A stretch of 64,000 nucleotides of DNA, from NCBI RefSeq assembly GCF_044324785.1, contig NZ_CP172127.1; one strand, given 5' to 3'. The DNA comes from Escherichia coli (GTDB lineage Bacteria; Pseudomonadota; Gammaproteobacteria; Enterobacterales; Enterobacteriaceae). The notes under the pieces were generated by a model that saw only the letters and a program-made list of their open reading frames with translations, was not told the DNA's origin and ran no database searches. A program made the position numbers and the translations under genes. Of the stretch, positions 41,994 through 53,034 are shown piece after piece. How positions within the stretch are numbered: the stretch's first letter is position 1; every line of letters begins with the position of its first letter.

Positions 41994-44900
41994 TTACGCC
42001 TCCTCTTCATGACGAGCAAAGCGGCTTTTGGTCCACAATGCCAGACGGTCGAATAGCAGATAAATCACCGGCGTGGTAAACAGCGTCAGCACCTGGCTGA
42101 CAATCAGACCGCCGACCATGCCGATCCCTAACGGACGACGCAGTTCCGCGCCGACCCCGGTACTCAACATCAGCGGCAGCGCGCCAAGCAGAGCCGCCAG
42201 GGTGGTCATCAGGATCGGACGAAAACGCAACAGACAAGCCTGGTAGATTGCATCGCGTGGCGACATGCCTTGCTCGCGCTCAGCAGCCAGCGCGAAGTCG
42301 ATCATCATGATGGCGTTCTTCTTCACGATACCGATCAGCAAAATAATGCCGATAATCGCAATCACATCCAGCTCGCTACCGGCAATCAGTAGCGCCAGCA
42401 GTGCGCCGACCCCTGCGGTGGGTAGCGTCGAGAGAATGGTGATCGGGTGAATAAAGCTCTCGTACAGAATGCCGAGCACGATATACATCGCCACCACCGC
42501 CGCGACAATCAGCCAGACAGTGCTGCCAAGCGCCGACTGGAAGGCGAGGGTGCTGCCCTGGAACTGCGTGGTGATATCCACTGGCAGATTCAGCGTCTTC
42601 TCGGTGTCCATAATCGCCTGCACCGCATCGCCCAGCGAATAGTTATCCGGCACGTTAAAGGAGATGGTCGTTACCGGGAACTGATCCAGATGGTTGATGG
42701 AAAGCGGCGCAAAACGCTGCTCAATTTTGGCAATTGAGCTTAACGGCACCACGCCACCGTCGCTGCTGGTCAGGCGAATGGTATCCAGCGCCGCGAGGCC
42801 TGGGGTATTTTCGGTGTTGTGTTCCAGCACTACGCGATACTGGTTAGCCTGAGTATAAATAGTGGAAATCAGCCGCTGACCAAACGCGTTGTACAGGGCG
42901 TTATCGACATCCGCCATGCTGATCCCCAGACGGCTGGCGCTGTCGCGATCAACGTTGACATACGCCACCAGCCCTTGGTCCTGCCAGTCGCTGGAGACAT
43001 CAGAAAGCTGTGGCAGTTGCTGGAGTTTTTCCATCAACTGTGGCACCCAGGTACTGAGCGCATCCAGTGACGTGGCCTGTAAGGTAAACTGGTACTGGGT
43101 GCGGCTGACCTGAGTATCAATAGTCAGGTCCTGCGTTGGTTGCAGGAAGAGATCGACGCCCGGCACTTTATCTACTGCCGTTTGCAAACGAGCGATGACT
43201 TTTTGCACCCGATCATCACGTTCATCCAACGGTTTGAGGTTGATCTGTAAACGCGCACTGTTCAGCGACGGGTTAGTGCCATCAACGCCAACAAATGAGG
43301 TCAGGCTTTGCACTGCCGGATCCTGCAAAATCACATCCGCGACCTGGCGTTGCCGCTGGGCCATATTGGCAAAGGAGCTGGATTGCGGTGCCTGCAAAGT
43401 GCCCTGAATAATGCCGTTGTCCTGTACCGGGAAGAAACCTTTCGGAATGAACACCCACAACAGCACGCTAAGCAGCAGCGTGCTGAGCGCCACGCTTAAG
43501 GTCAGCCACGGATGATTCAGCACTTTCGCCAGTCCCTGACCATAGGCGGCGATTATCCTGTCGAACATTTTTTCCGAGGCACGGGAGAAGCGGTTCTGTT
43601 TACGCAGCGACTCCTGGCTGAGCATCCGCGCACACATCATCGGTGTCAGGGTCAGCGACACCACGGCTGAGATCAAAATCGCGACTGCCAGAGTAATAGC
43701 AAATTCGCGGAACAGTCGCCCGACGATATCGCCCATAAATAGCAGTGGGATCAACACTGCAATCAGTGAGAAGGTCAGCGAGATAATGGTAAAGCCGATT
43801 TCACCCGCGCCCTTGAGCGCCGCCGCCAGCGGTTTTTCGCCTTTTTCGATATAGCGGGAAATGTTTTCGATTACCACGATGGCGTCATCGACCACGAATC
43901 CGGTGGCGATAGTTAACGCCATCAGCGTCAGGTTATTGATTGAAAAATCGAGAAACACCATAACCGCAAAGGTGCCAATTAACGACAGCGGCACTGCGAC
44001 GCCAGGAATGATGGTCGCCGGAATATTGCGCAAAAACAGGTAGATAATCATGACTACCAGCGCGATAGCCATCATCAGTTCAAACTGGGTATCGTCGACC
44101 GATGCGCGGATGTTGGTGGTGCGGTCAGAAAGCACCGTCACTTTTACCGATTTCGGCAAACTCTCGGTGAGTTGTGGCAGCATCTGCCGGATGCTGTCGG
44201 CGGTGGAGATAATGTTAGCACCGGGCTGGCGCTGAACATTCATCACAATGGCCTGTTCTTTGTTCGCCCACGCGCCGAGCCAGCTGTTTTCTGCTCCTTG
44301 CTCTACGGTTGCGACATCGCCCAGACGAATCGGCGCGCCGTTCTGGTAGGCGATGATCAGCTGGCGATACTCTTCGGCGGATTGCATCTGGTCGTTCGCG
44401 GAAAGTGTGACCGCACGAGAAGGGCCGTCGAGGCTACCTTTTGCCGAGTTAACGTTAGCGCCGGTAATAGCGGTGCGCACGGTTTCGCTGGTCAGGCCGA
44501 GGGCGGCAATCGCCTGGGCGTTAAGTTTGACGCGAACAGCCGGACGCTGGCCGCCGGAAAGCGTCACCAGGCCGACGCCGGAAATCTGCGAGATTTTCTG
44601 CGCGACGCGGGTTTCCACCATATCTTCCACTTGCGTCATTGGCATGGCGGTTGAGGTGACGGCGAGCGTCATGATTGGTGGATCTGCCGGGTTCACTTTG
44701 CTGTAAACCGGCGGGTTAGGCAGATCGCCCGGCAACAAGTTGGTCGCAGCGTTAATCGCGGCCTGCACCTCCTGCTCGGCGACATCGAGCGGTAATGTTA
44801 GCTGGAACTGCAAAGTGATAACTGACGCACCGCCGGAACTTTGCGACGACATCTGTTTCAGGCCGGACATCTGCCCGAACTGGCGTTCGAGCGGCGCGGT

Positions 44901-45116
44901 AACGGCAGAGGTCATGACATCCGGGCTCGCACCTGGGTAGAGCGTGACCACCTGAATGGTCGGATAGTCCACTTCCGGCAGCGCCGAAACGGGCAGGGCG
45001 CGATAACCGATAATCCCGGCGAGTAAGATCGCCACCATCAGCAGCGTGGTGGCGACAGGACGCATAATAAACAGGCGCGACGGGCCGCCTGTGCTGCTAG
45101 GAGGTAACACCTGCAT
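41994..45116 (-). CDS. mdtB: RND multidrug efflux pump subunit MdtB (1040 aa)
   Basis: RND architecture. Operon position. Confidence 0.95.
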
Positions 45117-46363
45117 CAGGAGCGTGCTCCTTTTTTCGCGTATTCGCGGCTGGTGGCTTTCTCTTCCGGAGTGGTGGCGCTCTGGGCTTCCACCACTTCC
45201 ACTTTCGCCCCTTCGGTCAGGCGATCAATGCCGTCTGTCACCACGCGGTCGCCCGCAGAAATACCTGCGCGGATCACCACTTTCTGACTGTCCTGAATGC
45301 CCGGCGTCACCAGATGTTTGCTGACCTTGTTTTCGCTATTCAGCACCCAGACAAAATGGCCTTCATTGCCCATTTGCAGGGCGGCGGTGGGGATCACCAC
45401 GGCGTTTTGTTCGGTGTCGACTAACATACGCGCGTTAACAAACTGATTGGGAAACAGCGCATCCTCCTGATTATTAAAGCGTGCTTTCACTTTAATCGTA
45501 CCGGTAGTGGCATCGATTTGGTTATCGAGACTTAACAGCGTGCCTTCACTTAATTTCTTCGAGTTGGTGCGATCCCAGGCTTCAACAACCAGCGGTTTTC
45601 CGGCTTTTTGCGCCTGTACTACGGTAGTGATATCGCTTTCCGGCAGGGTAAAGAGCAAATCGATAGGATGCGTCTGGGTGATCACCACAATCCCGGTGGT
45701 ATCACCACTGGAGATTTGGTTACCAACATCAACCTGCTTGAGACCAACGCGACCATCGACTGGTGCGGTGATGCGGCTCCAGTCGAGTTGCAGCTGCGCG
45801 CTGGCGACGCTTGCTTCATCAGCCTTAATGGTGCCTTCTGTTTCACTGACCAGCGCTTGTTGGGCATCCAGTTCCTGACGAGATACGAGATTGGTTTTTA
45901 CCAGTTGTTGATAACGCGCCAGGTCACGGCGGGCGTTGGCAAGCGTGGCTTTATCTTTTGCCAGTTGGCCCTGGGCTTGTGCTAATGCAACTTTGAACTG
46001 GCTGGGGTCAATTTCTGCCAATAAATCGCCTGCTTTGACCTGCTGGCCTTCCTGGAAATGTAACGCCATCAGTTGACCGTCCACGCGGCTGCGCACCGTA
46101 ACGGTATTAGCGGCGGTAATGGTGCCAAGCCCGGTGAGATAACGTGGCACAGCTTGTTCTACGGCAGTCGCCGCCTGAACCGGGGCTAATGGGCCGGCAC
46201 GCATACCACGGCGACCACCCGCTGGCGATTGCTGCGCTTGTTTGGTCGCCCCTGGGGCTGCACTCTGGGAGTCATTGCGGCCTTGCCAGAACCAGAATGC
46301 GGCGATGGCGGCGATAACCACCACGATTACGATTACCCAACGGGATTTATAACTGCCTTTCAT
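45116..46363 (-). CDS. mdtA: RND efflux membrane fusion protein MdtA (415 aa)
   Basis: ORF track start at 46510 trimmed to [15 protein letters not shown] (signal/anchor). Confidence 0.9.
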
Positions 46364-46587
46364 CGTTAAGAGTTTCTCTTCCTGAAACGTTTCGCGGAAT
46401 GATACTAGTGTAGCCAGCCAATAAGGGAGAAAAATGGAGGAATTATGAAACACTGTCGGGAATCGTCTGAATGACGGGCACATTTGCGAGCACGCATCCA
46501 GTAATAACACATGAAACTATTTTATCTACGCGTTAGCGATAGACTGCTTGCATGGCGAAAGGAGGTAAGCCGACGATTTCAGCGGGA

Positions 46588-46735
46588 CGCTGAAACGGGA
46601 AAGCCCCTCCCGAGGAAGGGGCCATAAATAAGGAAAGGGTCATGATGAAGCTACTCATCATCGTGGTGCTCTTAGTGATTAGCTACCCAGCATACTAAGA
46701 CTACCAGGGCGGGGGAAACCCCGCTCTACCCTCAC
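46588..46735 (-). ncRNA. sibB: Sib antisense sRNA, antitoxin to the first ibs (boundaries approximate)
   Basis: In the Ibs/Sib family the antitoxin RNA is encoded antisense and spans the whole toxin ORF. Minus-strand hairpin GGCCCCTTCC-TCG-GGAGGGGC at about 46596..46619 is a plausible 3' terminator. Ends not determined. Confidence 0.4.
46642..46698 (+). CDS. ibsB: Ibs-family type I toxin peptide (18 aa, MMKLLIIVVLLVISYPAY)
   Basis: Short hydrophobic ORF with AAGGAAAGGG Shine-Dalgarno. Copy adjacent to mdtA. Symbol assigned by synteny and similarity to K-12 IbsB as recalled. Confidence 0.7.
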   Translation: MMKLLIIVVLLVISYPAY

Positions 46736-46914
46736 TCCTGAAAGTATGCCTTCACGATAAGATTGTCAATCTGCAGGCTTTGCAGTCTGCGATCCTGCCA
46801 GCAAATATTCTTTGCGAGACGTTACGCAATAATCACATGTGAAACTATTTTATCCGCAAGTCAGCGATAGACTGCATTCAGGGCGAAAGGAGGTAAGCCG
46901 ATGATTTCAGCGGG

Positions 46915-47062
46915 ACGCTGAAACGGGAAAGCCCCTCCCGAGGAAGGGGCCTTAAATAAGGAAAGGGTCATGATGAAGTGGATCATCATCGTGGTGCTCT
47001 TAGTCATAAGCTTCCCGGCTTACTAAGACTACCAGGGCGGGGGAACCCCCGCTCTACCCTCA
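46915..47062 (-). ncRNA. Sib antisense sRNA for the middle ibs copy (boundaries approximate)
   Basis: Same architecture as the first unit, shifted by one repeat period. Confidence 0.4.
46969..47025 (+). CDS. Ibs-family type I toxin peptide (18 aa, MMKWIIIVVLLVISFPAY), middle copy
   Basis: Second repeat unit. Same architecture as the other two copies. Confidence 0.7.
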
Positions 47063-47244
47063 CTCCTGAAAGTATGCCTTCACGATAAGATTGTCAATCT
47101 GCAGGCTTTGCAGTCTGCGATCCTGCCAGCAAATATTCTTTGCGAGTCGTTACGCAATAATCACAGAGGAAACTATTTTGTTCACGCGTTAGCGATAGAC
47201 TGCATTCAGGGCGAAAGGAGGTAAGCCGACGATTTCAGCGGGAC

Positions 47245-47392
47245 GCTGAAACGGGAAACCCTCTCCCGGAGAAGAGGGCTTTTAATAAGGAAAGGGTTAT
47301 GATGAAGCACGTCATCATACTGGTGATACTCTTAGTGATTAGCTTCCAGGCTTACTAAGAACACCAGGGGGAGGGGGAAACCTCTCCCTAAC
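47245..47392 (-). ncRNA. sibA: Sib antisense sRNA for the third ibs copy (boundaries approximate)
   Basis: Same architecture as the first unit, shifted by two repeat periods. Confidence 0.4.
47299..47358 (+). CDS. ibsA: Ibs-family type I toxin peptide (19 aa, MMKHVIILVILLVISFQAY)
   Basis: Third repeat unit adjacent to yegL. IbsA-like. Confidence 0.7.
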   Translation: MMKHVIILVILLVISFQAY

Positions 47393-47578
47393 CCTCACTC
47401 CTGAAATTATGTCACTCCGCCCTTAGTGTCAATCGACGGCTCTCCGTTCTTGCGAGGCGAATAGCAAAATTTTCTGCGCCGCCGGGCCTAATTCTGAAAG
47501 TTTCTTCGTTTGCTCTTATTTCATTGTTGCGGTCGGTATGATACCGGGCCTCAATAATTCTCTAAGAAAGGATTTCTT

Positions 47579-48238
47579 ATGAGCGAACAAATCACGTTTG
47601 CCACCAGCGATTTTGCCAGTAACCCGGAACCACGTTGCCCCTGCATTTTGCTGTTGGATGTTTCTGGTTCGATGAGTGGTAGACCTATTAATGAACTTAA
47701 CGCCGGATTGGTTACCTTTCGCGATGAACTGCTTGCCGACCCGCTGGCCTTAAAAAGAGTGGAACTCGGCATTGTGACGTTCGGCCCGGTGCATGTGGAA
47801 CAACCCTTTACCAGCGCCGCTAATTTTTTCCCGCCCATCCTGTTTGCCCAAGGCGATACACCAATAGGCGCTGCCATTACCAAAGCCCTGGATATGGTAG
47901 AGGAGCGCAAACGTGAGTATCGTGCAAATGGTATTTCGTATTATCGCCCGTGGATTTTCCTGATCACCGATGGCGCTCCAACCGATGAGTGGCAGGCTGC
48001 CGCCAACAAAGTGTTTCAGGGGGAAGAAGATAAGAAGTTTGCCTTCTTTTCCATCGGTGTTCAGGGGGCGGATATGAAGACTTTGGCACAAATCAGCGTT
48101 CGTCAGCCTTTTCCACTGCAGGGATTACAATTCCGTGAACTGTTTAGCTGGTTATCCAGTTCACTGCGTTCGGTTTCCCGCTCCACGCCGGGAACGGAAG
48201 TTGTGCTGGAAGCGCCAAAAGGCTGGACGTCAGTGTGA
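47579..48238 (+). CDS. yegL: von Willebrand factor A domain protein YegL (219 aa)
   Basis: MIDAS motif [11 protein letters not shown] near the N-terminus. Confidence 0.9.
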
Positions 48239-48996
48239 GCTGGCGTCTGGTCTATGCATCAACCGTTGGAACGTCGCACATCAGCGCGGACTTGCCTTGC
48301 CAGGATGCCTGCCAGATGCAGGTTGCCTGGTTAAATGACCAGCAGCCATTATTGTCGGTATTTGTCGCTGATGGCGCAGGCAGTGTCTCGCAGGGTGGCG
48401 AAGGCGCGATGCTCGCCGTCAATGAAGCGATGGCTTATATGTCGCAAAAAGTGCAGGGCGGGGAATTGGGGCTTAATGATGTCCTCGCCACGGATATTGT
48501 GCTGACCGTTCGTCAGCGACTTTTTGCCGAGGCGGAAGCCAAAGAATTAGCTGTTCGCGATTTTGCCTGCACGTTTCTGGGACTGATTTCATCGCCTAAC
48601 GGCACCCTGATTATGCAGATTGGCGATGGCGGCGTGGTGGTAGATTTGGGGCACGGTCTGCAACTGCCGCTCACGCCGATGGTGGGTGAATATGTCAACA
48701 TGACGCACTTCATTACCGATGAAGATGCGGTTTCCAGACTGGAAACTTTCACCAGCACTGAGCGTGCGCACAAAGTTGCAGCATTTACGGATGGTATCCA
48801 GCGGCTGGCGTTAAATATGCTGGATAATTCTCCCCATGTGCCTTTCTTTACCCCGTTTTTCAATGGGCTGGCGTCAGCAACGCAGGAACAACTCGATTTA
48901 TTACCTGAATTGTTAAAGCAGTTTTTGTCCAGCCCGGCGGTAAACGAGCGTACCGATGATGATAAAACGTTGGCACTGGCGCTGTGGACAGAATGA
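48235..48996 (+). CDS. yegK: PP2C-type Ser/Thr phosphatase YegK/PphC (253 aa)
   Basis: Overlaps the yegL stop. PP2C-like aspartate-rich motifs (FVADGAGS). Confidence 0.85.
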
Positions 48997-49060
48997 ACAT
49001 CGCATGGCGGTTGAAGACAACAGTTCAACCGCCAGTTTAAGCAATCAATATAATGGCTGG

Positions 49061-49522
49061 TTAGCGAACTAATTTTGCTCTTAGCTCGTCGGCTTCTTCT
49101 TTTGGATAGGTGACCAATAAAGGATCAATGGTATAACCGCCGTAAATTTTATCCCCGCGTGTATACATCCAGTCTGAAATATCTTCTTTCTTGATTTTCC
49201 ACTCCTGACCATATTCTACGTTTGTAACAATACCAGGGTCATTGCTTATTACGCCAATAAACATGCCGTTAGAATAAGTGACATCCGTGAGCCAGAAATG
49301 CTCGGTTCTTCCGTGATCGGTTATCGGGGCTTTGACTGCGAAAGTATCGGCATCTTTTTTATTCATAACCTCGATGAATTTATCAGTTTCTTTCCGCGCA
49401 TGTTGAATGGCGTCAGACATCGCTTGTTTATCATAACCTCCCGTCACTAACGTATCCGAAACTTCACTAAAGCCCGCGGTAGTAAAAAATAGCAGACTCA
49501 ACATAAGTAATATCTTTTTCAT
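49061..49522 (-). CDS. yegJ: Secreted DUF2314-family protein YegJ (153 aa)
   Basis: Signal peptide MKKILLMLSLLFFTTAGFS. Position. Confidence 0.85.
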   Translation of the reverse strand: MKKILLMLSLLFFTTAGFSEVSDTLVTGGYDKQAMSDAIQHARKETDKFIEVMNKKDADTFAVKAPITDHGRTEHFWLTDVTYSNGMFIGVISNDPGIVTNVEYGQEWKIKKEDISDWMYTRGDKIYGGYTIDPLLVTYPKEEADELRAKLVR

Positions 49523-49722
49523 TTTTTCTCCAGAATCCCTGTGTAGTAAAAGTTAGCAATAAACCTGTGGAAGTGAATCATTATCAGGTTGGAATTGAAT
49601 TGTATCCTGATGAAATTGCATTATCATTTTTATTCTTGAGTGGGACTCTTCCCATATAGAAATAATTATAATAGGCAGTGTTATTATTCATTGAAATATA
49701 ATATGACTGCCCTTGAAACATT

Positions 49723-51669
49723 ATGAAGACAAATATAAAAGTATTTACATCGACAGGTGAATTGACCACTCTCGGGCGTGAACTGGGCAAAGGTGGCGAA
49801 GGCGCGGTTTATGATATCGAGGAGTTAGTCGATAGCGTCGCCAAGATTTATCACACGCCGCCACCCGCCTTAAAACAGGACAAACTTGCCTTTATGGCTG
49901 CGACAGCTGATGCGCAGTTGCTGAATTATGTCGCCTGGCCGCAGGCAACGCTTCACGGTGGACGAGGCGGAAAAGTAATCGGTTTTATGATGCCAAAAGT
50001 TTCTGGTAAAGAACCGATTCATATGATCTATAGCCCGGCACATCGTCGTCAACGTTACCCTCATTGTGCGTGGGATTTTCTACTCTATGTTGCGCGCAAT
50101 ATTGCTTCATCTTTTGCTACGGTTCACGAGCACGGGCATGTCGTGGGTGACGTAAACCAGAACAGCTTTATGGTAGGCCGTGACAGCAAAGTGGTGTTGA
50201 TTGATAGCGACTCCTTTCAGATTAACGCCAATGGCACACTGCATTTATGCGAAGTCGGCGTGTCGCATTTTACGCCGCCAGAGCTGCAAACCTTGCCATC
50301 ATTTGTCGGCTTTGAACGCACCGCGAATCACGATAATTTTGGCCTTGCGTTGCTGATTTTTCACGTCTTGTTTGGTGGTCGGCATCCTTATTCCGGTGTA
50401 CCGCTTATCTCTGATGCGGGTAATGCACTGGAGACGGATATTGCCCATTTCCGTTATGCCTACGCATCAGATAATCAGCGACGTGGTTTAAAACCGCCGC
50501 CACGATCTATTCCGCTGTCGATGTTACCAGGTGATGTTGAAGCCATGTTTCAGCAGGCATTCACGGAAAGTGGCGTGGCAACCGGGCGTCCGACGGCAAA
50601 AGCGTGGGTAGCGGCACTTGATTCTCTACGCCAACAGTTAAAGAAATGTACCGTTTCGGCAATGCATGTTTACCCCGGTCATTTGACTGACTGCCCGTGG
50701 TGTGCGCTGGATAATCAAGGCGTTATCTATTTTATTGATCTCGGCGAAGAGGTCATTACCACCAGCGGTGATTTTGTGCTGGCGAAAGTCTGGGCGATGG
50801 TGATGGCGTCAGTTGCACCACCAGCATTGCAACTGCCATTACCCGATCATTTCCAACCGACTGGCAGGCCGCTTCCTTTAGGCCTGTTACGGCGTGAATA
50901 CATCATTCTGATTGAGATCGGACTGTCAGCGTTATCGCTGTTGCTTTGCGGCCTTCAGGCAGAACCGCGTTATATTATTTTGGTTCCTGTGCTGGCGGCT
51001 ATCTGGATTATTGGCAGCCTGACAAGCAAAGCGTACAAAGCAGAAATCCAGCAACGCCGTGAGGCGTTTAATCGCGCGAAAATGGACTATGACCATTTAG
51101 TCAGCCAGATCCAACGGTTGGGCGGGCTGGAAGGTTTTATCGCCAAACGGACGATGCTCGAAAAAATGAAGGACGAAATTCTTGGGTTACCGGAAGAAGA
51201 GAAACGCGCTCTGGCAGCACTTCAGGACACCGCAAGGGAACGGCAGAAGCAGAAGTTTCTGGAGGGATTTTTTATTGATGTTGCCTCTATTCCCGGCGTT
51301 GGCCCTGCGCGTAAAGCGGCGTTACGGTCCTTTGGTATTGAAACGGCGGCAGACGTTACCCGACGGAGCGTTAAGCAAGTTAGAGGTTTTGGTGATCATC
51401 TGACCCAGGCGGTTATCGACTGGAAAGCAAGTTGCGAACGCCGTTTTGTGTTCAGGCCGAATGAAGCGGTAACGCCAGCAGACAGACAAGCGGTAATGGC
51501 AAAAATGGCCGCCAAACGACATCGGCTGGAATCGACGTTGACTGTCGGCGCGACAGAGTTGCAGCGATTCCGCCTTCATGCTCCAGCACGGACCATGCCG
51601 TTGATGGAACCTTTACGTCAGGCGGCAGAAAAACTGGCTCAGGCGCAGGCTGATTTAAGCCGTTGCTGA
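49723..51669 (+). CDS. yegI: Eukaryotic-like Ser/Thr protein kinase YegI (648 aa)
   Basis: Glycine-rich loop LGKGGEGAVY, catalytic-loop-like HGHVVGDVNQNSFMV, C-terminal transmembrane and coiled-coil region. Confidence 0.9.
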   Translation: MKTNIKVFTSTGELTTLGRELGKGGEGAVYDIEELVDSVAKIYHTPPPALKQDKLAFMAATADAQLLNYVAWPQATLHGGRGGKVIGFMMPKVSGKEPIHMIYSPAHRRQRYPHCAWDFLLYVARNIASSFATVHEHGHVVGDVNQNSFMVGRDSKVVLIDSDSFQINANGTLHLCEVGVSHFTPPELQTLPSFVGFERTANHDNFGLALLIFHVLFGGRHPYSGVPLISDAGNALETDIAHFRYAYASDNQRRGLKPPPRSIPLSMLPGDVEAMFQQAFTESGVATGRPTAKAWVAALDSLRQQLKKCTVSAMHVYPGHLTDCPWCALDNQGVIYFIDLGEEVITTSGDFVLAKVWAMVMASVAPPALQLPLPDHFQPTGRPLPLGLLRREYIILIEIGLSALSLLLCGLQAEPRYIILVPVLAAIWIIGSLTSKAYKAEIQQRREAFNRAKMDYDHLVSQIQRLGGLEGFIAKRTMLEKMKDEILGLPEEEKRALAALQDTARERQKQKFLEGFFIDVASIPGVGPARKAALRSFGIETAADVTRRSVKQVRGFGDHLTQAVIDWKASCERRFVFRPNEAVTPADRQAVMAKMAAKRHRLESTLTVGATELQRFRLHAPARTMPLMEPLRQAAEKLAQAQADLSRC

Positions 51670-51681
51670 GCAAGTTTTCAA

Positions 51682-53034
51682 TTAACGAAACACCACTTCC
51701 GCCCAGCGTGCCAGCCCGGCGGTGACGGAGCCAAAGTCATCGCCACCTGCAATCGGAATGCCCGGCAACTGTTCTGTCAGCGCTTTTTTAATCAGCGGTG
51801 AACGGGCGCTACCGCCGGTCAGATAGATAACATCCGGTTTTTCCTGGGCGTTATCCAGCGCCAGTTGCACCTGTTCCAGAATCCGCGCCAGCGGCTGGCT
51901 GAGGGCGCTTTCCAGCCCTTGTCGGCTAATCAGCGTTGCCAATTCATCGCTGATAAACGGCAGTGAGGCGCGGGTTTCCGCTACGCTTGAAAGCGCAATT
52001 TTGCTCTCTTCTGCGCTGCGCACCAGGCGATAGCTTAAACGCTGACGCCAGACTTTCTGTAACAGGGCCACTTTCTCCGGTTCGCGGGCATCGCGTACCA
52101 GATCGTTAAGCAGACGACCGTTGGCACTACTGTAGAAATCACTTTGCGCAGGGACGTCGTTGATGGCAACCGCATTCCACCACGGCAGGATCGGCAGGGC
52201 GATGCCTTTTTCGGTTTCGCCACCCATGCCAAGTAACGGCATCAGGTTTTTAAACGCCAGCGCGATATCCAGATCGTTACCACCAATACGGCAACCACTG
52301 TGACCCAGCAGGCTGGCTTCACGATCGAGACGCGAACGCCACTGCGGCCCCATCAGCAGCAATGAACAGTCAGTCGTACCACCGCCGATATCCACCACCA
52401 GCACCCGTTTTTCTTCCTGCAAGGTGGCTTCGTAATCCAGCCCAGCCGCGACCGGCTCGTACTGGAATACCACGTCCCTGAATCCGGCACGCTTCGCCGC
52501 GCGTTCCAGAATCCCTTGCGCCTGGGCGTTTGCTTCATCGCCGCCCAGCCCCTGGAAGTTGATCGGGCGACCAATCACCGCCTGAGTAATCGCTTCTGGC
52601 AGCTGCGCCTGCGCCTGCTGGCGAATGTGCAACATCATTGCGCAGACCAGATCCTCAAACAGCGCTACCTGCTGCGGTTTTAAGCCGCTGGCACCGAGGA
52701 ACGATTTTGGTGATTTCACAAACCACACTTCTTCTGGATCATCAATGTACTGTGCCAGTGAGGAAAGACCGAACTGCACGCTTTTCGCCGTAACATCGAT
52801 ATCTTCTTCGCGGTTATAACGAATCGCCCGACGCAACAGCGCCTGCGTTTCATCGTCGTCTGCCGGAACATCATGATGGCGGTACAGCCATTCGCTTACC
52901 GCTTCACGCGTTGGCGCGCAAAGCATTGAAGGCAGCAGCGTGCTGTCGTTTTCCATTTTTAGCAAGTGCGGTTTACCGTCACGCATGACCGCCACTGAAC
53001 AGTTTGCTGTACCGTAATCAAAACCAATAAACAC
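51682..53034 (-). CDS. yegD: Hsp70/actin-fold ATPase YegD (450 aa)
   Basis: GTG start giving (M)FIGFDYGTANCSVAV. DxGGGTTD phosphate-2 motif present. ORF track start at 53097 rejected. Confidence 0.9.
   Translation of the reverse strand: MFIGFDYGTANCSVAVMRDGKPHLLKMENDSTLLPSMLCAPTREAVSEWLYRHHDVPADDDETQALLRRAIRYNREEDIDVTAKSVQFGLSSLAQYIDDPEEVWFVKSPKSFLGASGLKPQQVALFEDLVCAMMLHIRQQAQAQLPEAITQAVIGRPINFQGLGGDEANAQAQGILERAAKRAGFRDVVFQYEPVAAGLDYEATLQEEKRVLVVDIGGGTTDCSLLLMGPQWRSRLDREASLLGHSGCRIGGNDLDIALAFKNLMPLLGMGGETEKGIALPILPWWNAVAINDVPAQSDFYSSANGRLLNDLVRDAREPEKVALLQKVWRQRLSYRLVRSAEESKIALSSVAETRASLPFISDELATLISRQGLESALSQPLARILEQVQLALDNAQEKPDVIYLTGGSARSPLIKKALTEQLPGIPIAGGDDFGSVTAGLARWAEVVFR

Follow-up and report, generated by a model that had tools for sequence, protein, structure and literature searches.

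The region at positions 47579-53034 of the window, as we call the whole stretch of 64,000 nucleotides of Escherichia coli DNA that was analysed (contig NZ_CP172127.1), carries five intact open reading frames (ORFs), yegL, pphC (also called yegK), yegJ, yegI and yegD. The present analysis concerns the three genes yegL, pphC and yegI, referred to below as the triad, and their relation to yegJ and yegD. A previous reading of the locus, made from the DNA letters alone (the sequence-only reading), had identified these genes and their domains and had taken them for conserved E. coli genes. All the gene identities and domain calls were borne out by ORF coordinates, profile searches and, for YegI, AlphaFold and Foldseek. 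RefSeq annotation of matching E. coli genomes gives the same five gene names. Conservation was equally clear, with megablast matches to the region in 5423 of 5426 complete E. coli genomes and at least 80% of the query covered in 5381 of them. The start codon region of pphC overlaps the yegL stop codon by 4 nt, and yegI and yegD are convergent, with stop codons 12 bp apart. The window is about 96.3% identical to K-12, flanks included, and its best match, strain N3, is 98.3% identical. Divergence of the locus was considered as a sign of an arms race and rejected, since the flanks are equally ~96.3% identical to K-12 and the ratios of nonsynonymous to synonymous substitution (dN/dS) are low. One E. 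coli genome (ECE228) has an IS3 element within the region.

YegL matched the Pfam VWA profile (E 5e-10) and has a complete metal ion-dependent adhesion site (MIDAS), D27-x-S29-x-S31 with T94 and D131, each position being at least 95% conserved in 68 relatives. Its C-terminus holds a conserved Ser-rich segment, WLSxSxxSVSxSxPG, followed by a PxGWxxV tail. In tblastn comparisons with IncHI2 and Klebsiella ter clusters, YegL shared 29-37% identity with the vWA/TerY proteins encoded there (E 1e-11 to 1e-17), and it is predicted from sequence to be a TerY-like protein. PphC matched Pfam PP2C_2 (E 7e-52), its metal-binding Asp motifs D46G, D131G, D186G and D242D243 are at least 95% conserved, and the protein dephosphorylates YegI in vitro (bioRxiv 10.1101/303594). 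The dN/dS values determined against K-12 were 0.058 for yegL, 0.173 for pphC and 0.089 for yegI, with 0.016 for mdtB and 0.183 for alkA as a comparison; the range covered by the triad (0.06-0.17) is comparable to that of yegD and dgcE. Judged by these ratios, all three genes are under purifying selection.

YegI did not reach the Pfam Pkinase profile at E<=0.01 in the profile search. Its AlphaFold2 model has a mean pLDDT (predicted score of the local distance difference test) of 90.6, and over its first ~300 residues it superposes on the kinase domains of PknA, PknB and CaMKII (Foldseek E ~1e-7, target TM score 0.62-0.73), PknA and PknB being the nearest solved bacterial structures. Conservation was assessed in an alignment of 32 relatives spanning 33-90% identity. 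The P-loop residues G24 and E26, the beta-3 Lys K41, the catalytic D143 and N145, the metal-binding D161, D163 and S164, and the APE-like P186-E187 were invariant in this alignment; VGD..Q.S replaces HRD, and DSD at 161-163 replaces DFG. Published biochemistry describes YegI as a Mn2+-preferring Ser/Thr kinase that self-activates via autophosphorylation of activation-loop serines. Autophosphorylation is lost in the K39D and D141N mutants (REL606 numbering), and the DSD motif is essential (bioRxiv 10.1101/819920). On the grounds of the invariant residues, the confident model, the superposition on kinases and the published activity, YegI is a Hanks-type kinase.

The part of YegI beyond the kinase domain has an architecture of its own. 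Immediately after the kinase domain, C309, H315, C324 and C327 are invariant in the same alignment, and the model forms two short strands in this knuckle region; from the Cys/His pattern we infer that the knuckle may bind metal. Helices follow at residues 391-411 and from 417-467 onwards, and the hairpin segment is hydrophobic yet weakly conserved. PhoA-LacZ fusions placed the protein in the inner membrane, with two passes and both termini cytoplasmic (bioRxiv 10.1101/819920). By its structure, the C-terminal module has a tandem helix-hairpin-helix, (HhH)2, fold. The positions of all these segments are given in Table 1.

Table 1. Genes, YegI segments and flanking features of the triad locus, in window coordinates.
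Feature	Position	Strand	Description
yegL	47579-48238	+	219 aa; predicted TerY-like vWA protein; Pfam VWA
pphC (yegK)	48235-48996	+	253 aa; PP2C-type Ser/Thr phosphatase; Pfam PP2C_2
yegJ	49061-49522	-	153 aa; Pfam DUF2314
yegI	49723-51669	+	648 aa; Hanks-type Ser/Thr kinase
yegI residues ~1-300	49723-50622	+	divergent Hanks-type kinase domain; invariant columns, Foldseek, published activity
yegI residues ~305-330	50635-50712	+	zinc-knuckle-like C-x5-H-x8-C-x2-C; C309, H315, C324, C327
yegI residues ~391-513	50893-51261	+	membrane helical hairpin (~395-441) running into long coiled coil
yegI residues ~515-647	51265-51663	+	(HhH)2 domain (515-575), then long C-terminal helix
yegD	51682-53034	-	450 aa; Hsp70/actin-fold ATPase; annotated start at 53034
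Escherichia-specific insert relative to Salmonella	47416-51681		yegL-pphC-(yegJ)-yegI, between the last Sib/Ibs unit and the yegD stop codon
Sib/Ibs unit	46627-46769	-	Sib antitoxin RNA/Ibs toxin, type I toxin-antitoxin
Sib/Ibs unit	46955-47097	-	Sib antitoxin RNA/Ibs toxin, type I toxin-antitoxin
Sib/Ibs unit	47284-47432	-	Sib antitoxin RNA/Ibs toxin, type I toxin-antitoxin

To follow the genes through other bacteria, relatives of YegI were sought in one genome per species of about 100,000 species; 407 genomes were positive, and the best 80 loci were examined. In 77 of the 80 loci the kinase gene has homologues of YegL and PphC directly upstream, in this order and all on one strand, and the three genes overlap or nearly abut; at the other three loci the contig ends upstream. 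These best 80 loci span Escherichia (4), Klebsiella spallanzanii, many Burkholderiales, Pseudomonas, Frankia, Georgenia and Paenibacillus, as well as Planctomycetota, Acidobacteria, Chlorobiaceae, Synergistaceae and the archaeon Methanoregula. Remoter metagenomic relatives (35-43% identity) stand in the same triad arrangement. An exhaustive HMMER search at E<=1e-30 returned 3,226 clusters at 50% identity, mostly with end-to-end alignments, and in a minority of these SH3, TPR or Cys-rich modules occupy the place of the C-terminal module. Clustering of 1,064 neighbouring ORFs revealed no universal fourth gene beside the triad, only clade-specific ones, namely a staphylococcal nuclease (SNase) at 4 loci, TetR at 8 and a Cys-rich 221-aa ORF at 8.

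Some of these loci deserve mention individually. Three metagenome-assembled genomes of Methanoregula (L068, L076, L083) hold full-length YegI-type kinases (37% identity) together with PP2C genes, and vWA genes are also present in L076 and L083, where the contig extends far enough upstream; these loci point to transfer of the triad between domains of life. In the Piscinibacter/Leptothrix clade (L005:7932-8474, L017, L018, L032, L073) the vWA gene is preceded, at ~100 bp and in the same orientation, by a gene of the staphylococcal-nuclease fold, a candidate clade-specific effector. The yegI gene is present as two ORFs in two Escherichia species representatives, MOD1-EC7003 (L014:8671-10620) and E1V33 (L015:4500-6450), which could be pseudogenisation or an assembly error.

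Alignment with Salmonella located the boundaries of the triad. Homology ends at window position 47415 and restarts at 51682; in Salmonella the genes run dgcE-alkA-yegD-ibs-mdtABC, yegD being followed directly by ibs, and the triad is missing. The insert carried by Escherichia, counted for the triad, is ~3.5 kb. YegI is at least 90% identical among Escherichia but only ~62% identical in its nearest relatives elsewhere (scattered Klebsiella, Piscinibacter and Chromobacterium), whereas YegD keeps 86-90% identity outside the genus; the K. spallanzanii triad occupies a different chromosomal site. From the Salmonella synteny and boundaries, this drop in identity and the different K. spallanzanii site we conclude that an ancestor of Escherichia gained the triad by horizontal transfer and that it later became fixed. 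In G+C content it now resembles the host. The statement of the sequence-only reading that these genes are not an insertion thus holds within E. coli and fails against Salmonella, relative to which the triad is inserted between ibs/sib and the yegD stop codon. The insertion point abuts the last of three tandem type I toxin-antitoxin units upstream of yegL, each an Ibs toxin with its Sib antitoxin RNA; at the equivalent place K-12 has two units, O157 three and Salmonella one.

For YegD the match to Pfam HSP70 had E 1e-25, and a full-length match to the NCBIfam equivalog PRK11678 scored 810 bits. Orthologues with 86-90% identity were found in Salmonella, Citrobacter, Leclercia and others, and these three named genera carry YegD yet lack the triad. 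A YegD homologue within 10 kb of the triad was seen only at the four Escherichia loci and at 0 of the 76 others. By this distribution yegD is a vertically inherited Enterobacteriaceae gene unrelated to the triad. The Hsp70-fold partner proposed earlier has only adjacency in one genus behind it, because of this lack of co-occurrence outside Escherichia and the presence of YegD in genera without the triad. The same counts, together with the absence of YegJ from all 80 loci, speak against the four- or five-gene combination that had been put forward as a module. On comparative grounds the functional unit would be yegL-pphC-yegI, with yegD and yegJ as unrelated neighbours.

YegJ matched Pfam DUF2314 (E 2e-25). 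Its gene lies in an insert at about 48997-49722, with a low G+C of 0.41-0.42, which parts pphC from yegI in the window and in K-12. In O157:H7, which is without yegJ, pphC and yegI overlap by ATGA; where yegJ is present, the last pphC codons and the first ~15 yegI codons are replaced. We found yegJ in 1,924 of 5,426 E. coli genomes (35%), which contradicts the published view that it is confined to K strains. No YegJ homologue was seen near the triad at any of the 80 best loci, and the synonymous divergence (dS) of yegJ, 0.065, is below that of its neighbours. From these comparisons yegJ is a secondary, later insertion that uncoupled yegI from yegL-pphC. At 48175-48474, where the yegJ haplotype reaches into pphC, the window is 99-100% identical to K-12 but shares only 88-94% identity with O157. 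Alleles with and without yegJ make up two haplotypes that extend past the insert, over 48175-49823. The new N-terminus of YegI (MKTNIKVFTSTGEL...) resembles the N-termini of remote members of the family. This points to import through recombination and not to a simple insertion. A promoter and terminator scan gave no convincing plus-strand site for a yegI promoter within the yegJ insert. YegJ itself starts with a signal-peptide-like sequence (MKKILLMLSLLFFTTAGFS...). It has been reported that YegJ binds the cytoplasmic catalytic domain of RNase E and that its overexpression damages the membrane (PMC13232886); a predicted signal peptide would fit poorly with the former and well with the latter.

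The gene content of the triad recalls a known class. The TerY-P triad was defined by Anantharaman, Iyer and Aravind in 2012, according to PMC11090510 and PMC4978471. Since the trio of TerY-like vWA protein, PP2C phosphatase and Ser/Thr kinase matches the descriptions in these two papers, yegL-pphC-yegI can be classed, by sequence, as a TerY-P-type triad with a distinct kinase architecture, whose genes are already named and partly characterised. As in that class, a TerY-like vWA protein with intact MIDAS, a PP2C and a Hanks-type kinase are encoded in one operon, which is horizontally mobile and, among relatives outside Escherichia and as a qualitative observation, stands by restriction or other conflict systems. 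Described TerY-P kinases differ in carrying a C-terminal zinc ribbon (CoCoNuT-associated) or an OB fold, or in standing within ter/McrBC-like clusters, whereas YegI has the zinc knuckle, membrane hairpin, coiled coil and (HhH)2 domain and the Escherichia triad stands alone at a fixed chromosomal site. The earlier reading had missed the (HhH)2 domain, the secondary nature of yegJ, the TerY-P classification and the mobile, anciently inserted nature of the triad.

Some members of this class act against phages. Protection against Autographiviridae or T7-like phages is credited to other TerY-P triads (Gao 2020, as cited in PMC11090510 and PMC7699616; the P. aeruginosa 'TerY-P variant' of Costa et al. 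2024, PMC10889362). Like the E. coli triad, these stand-alone systems are three-gene vWA/PP2C/kinase cassettes with no separate effector gene. They differ in their demonstrated antiphage activity, with survival of the infected cells; the kinase of the Gao system, as PMC11090510 describes it, carries an OB fold. PADLOC models gave no match to YegL or PphC, which is uninformative, as canonical TerY proteins gave none either. The top 120 relatives of a Pseudomonas YegI homologue included none from P. aeruginosa. The published cloning primers for the 'TerY-P variant' (PMC10889362) were absent from viral and metagenome contigs, and when translated matched nothing in the triad loci.

Two further comparisons concern the kinase and its phosphatase. 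PknB/PstP and PrkC/PrpC likewise consist of a Hanks-fold kinase with activation-loop autophosphorylation that is reset by a co-operonic PP2C. YegI differs from these kinases in having no extracellular PASTA or other sensor domain, in the VGD..Q.S and DSD motifs, in having both termini in the cytoplasm and in being coupled to a vWA protein. The operon DRA0331-0334 of Deinococcus radiodurans, compared here through its description in bioRxiv 10.64898/2026.01.23.701218, also encodes a vWA protein, a DNA-damage-sensor Ser/Thr kinase and an antagonistic PP2C; as described there it differs by an FHA protein, an FHA-PP2C fusion and another gene order. To our knowledge, YegI and PphC are the sole Hanks-type kinase/PP2C pair in E. 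coli.

In other bacteria the triad often stands beside phage-defence genes, an observation of a qualitative kind. In K. spallanzanii it adjoins BrnA, GmrSD, SymE and type I restriction-modification (R-M) genes, and in Piscinibacter SNase, NYN, an SLFN-type helicase, MazG, ScoMcrA-like, BrxR and JetB genes. The Chromobacterium triad is part of a Tn7-like element, where a KAP NTPase and AbiH adjoin it, and on a metagenomic contig type I R-M and Mrr genes are the neighbours. PADLOC, when run on 110 neighbouring ORFs from 17 loci, returned JetC (Wadjet) twice, type I R-M twice and AriA/Old-like three times. Matches to plasmids numbered 52 records (9 of them Escherichia), of which 22 were typed conjugative; the 43 non-Escherichia plasmids include Pseudomonas megaplasmids. 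No real YegI relatives were found in phage genomes. The flanks of the Escherichia triad are sib/ibs and yegD, with no ter, DNA-processing or restriction-type conflict genes.

Proteins with DUF4236 were encountered within about 1 kb of YegLKI-type triads at five loci (L025:5569-6741, L034, L037, L072, L088), and also in an IncHI2 ter cluster (L094:6838-8046), just upstream of terW and TerY genes; DUF4236 is possibly a shared accessory of TerY systems. On the same IncHI2 plasmid, pCFSAN061772_02 (L094:12061-14548), mcr-1.1 and ISApl1 directly follow the ter/TerY cluster, and the insertion of this colistin-resistance gene seems to occupy the place where a canonical TerY-P module would be expected to have its PP2C/kinase part.

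The sequence-only reading was right that the physiological substrate is poorly defined. A literature check on YegI/PphC to 2026 yielded no substrate, trigger or physiological role; both the expression conditions and the substrates are described as unknown (Rajagopalan and Dworkin, bioRxiv 10.1101/303594 and 10.1101/819920; Göpel et al. 2026, PMC13232886). An indication of function comes from a screen of overproduced proteins, in which YegL and YegI were each among 208 of >4,000 E. coli proteins that induce the SOS response, YegI with at least a 5-fold rise and YegL listed among the strong phenotypes (Xia et al., bioRxiv 10.1101/354589). At a base rate of ~5%, two of three triad members would score by chance in ~0.7% of cases, as a rough estimate.

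Considering the above, we regard it as probable that the locus comprises three independent units, a TerY-P-type triad serving as a DNA-linked stress or defence switch, the later yegJ insertion, and an unrelated yegD. In the mechanism proposed for the triad, the kinase domain and zinc knuckle would form a constant core that is coupled, through the membrane hairpin and coiled coil, to the (HhH)2 module. The latter would act as a non-sequence-specific sensor binding nucleic acid or protein at the inner face of the membrane. The MIDAS metal site of YegL could bind an acidic or phosphorylated ligand, and its conserved Ser-rich C-terminal helix is a candidate target of the kinase. YegL may then be a phosphorylation-dependent adaptor or activator, PphC the brake, and YegI both sensor and output. 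A stress or defence switch tied to DNA (foreign DNA, phage entry or DNA damage) would be a likelier role for such a device than a housekeeping pathway, and from gene content and context a defence or DNA-linked role is plausible.

A bolder form of this proposal is an overlooked, membrane-anchored immune or surveillance switch fixed in the core genome of every E. coli. Foreign or damaged DNA would in that case be sensed at the inner membrane by the (HhH)2 domain of YegI, with YegL licensing the kinase, PphC holding it back and the kinase output acting on DNA metabolism, and the yegJ insertion would give the system a natural on/off polymorphism among E. coli lineages. SOS induction on overproduction would be explained in that case, since the kinase output acts on DNA metabolism. 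We hold this form only tentatively and consider it rather unlikely.

Several points weigh against a DNA-linked stress or defence switch. Besides binding DNA, (HhH)2 domains can serve for contacts between proteins, as in NusA-AR2. The triad is carried by E. coli B and K-12, both of them classical T7 hosts, and because these strains are T7-sensitive, native expression of the triad evidently does not block T7. The evidence from defence-gene neighbours is qualitative, lacking a genome-wide baseline of defence-gene density, and in some relatives the contexts are plainly housekeeping. Fixation and synteny across E. coli set the triad apart from typical accessory defence systems, and neighbour clustering gave no effector gene dedicated or linked to it. 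The primer and homologue searches gave no sequence link between the tested antiphage TerY-P systems and the YegI subfamily. A phage, DNA-entry or stress phenotype of the E. coli triad genes was not found in the literature, and in laboratory culture the locus shows weak expression or none (bioRxiv 10.1101/819920; PMC13232886). The SOS result may partly reflect overproduction of membrane proteins, which commonly induces SOS; MdtA and MdtB (window 41994-46510) were also listed as SOS-inducing 'DNA-damaging proteins' (bioRxiv 10.1101/354589). In all, the screen picked out four genes from a stretch of about 10 kb.

Other explanations of the locus were weighed against the same data. The TerY-like YegL and the strong preference of YegI for Mn2+ would suit a metal- or tellurite-type stress sensor, in which, as has been proposed for the TerY proteins of ter operons, the vWA MIDAS senses a metal or metalloid and adjusts membrane or redox physiology by switching the kinase/phosphatase pair. 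A metal-sensing switch was also the first proposal made for the TerY-P triad (Anantharaman 2012, as cited in PMC11090510), and DUF4236 proteins recur in ter clusters and near the five triad loci. However, neither E. coli nor the sampled loci have ter genes (TerD, TerC, TerB) next to the triad, the (HhH)2 domain is left unexplained and no metal phenotype has been reported, so that we find such a sensor unlikely. A housekeeping module in which all the genes cooperate, YegI and PphC regulating for example envelope homeostasis or the recovery from stationary phase, YegD serving as a chaperone partner and YegJ modulating them, agrees with the core status of the cluster in E. coli. It is nevertheless improbable in view of the absence of YegD at 76 of 76 non-Escherichia triad loci and of YegJ at 80 of 80, the retention of YegD in genera without the triad, the lack of yegJ in 65% of E. 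coli genomes, and the patchy distribution and mobility of the triad.

The remaining explanation, that the triad is a cryptic remnant of an ancient mobile module, transcriptionally silent and effectively functionless in modern E. coli, draws on the lack of a known expression condition, the break of the operon by yegJ in 35% of genomes, the split yegI at two loci (L014, L015) and the IS3 insertion in one genome. It has to contend with the 5381 of 5426 genomes that keep at least 80% of the region, with dN/dS values of 0.06-0.17, comparable to those of yegD and dgcE, and with catalytic residues that are all intact in the window; we consider it very unlikely.

The triad presents nothing categorically new; for this locus of the best-studied bacterium a sharper, testable hypothesis is now available. 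If the functional unit is the triad alone, the search for its function narrows to yegL-pphC-yegI, with YegL included and in a yegJ-less allele, and DNA-linked, phage or mobile-element challenges would be preferred over chaperone biology. A large and widespread subfamily of HhH kinases, with thousands of sequence clusters, would thereby gain a genetically tractable model organism.

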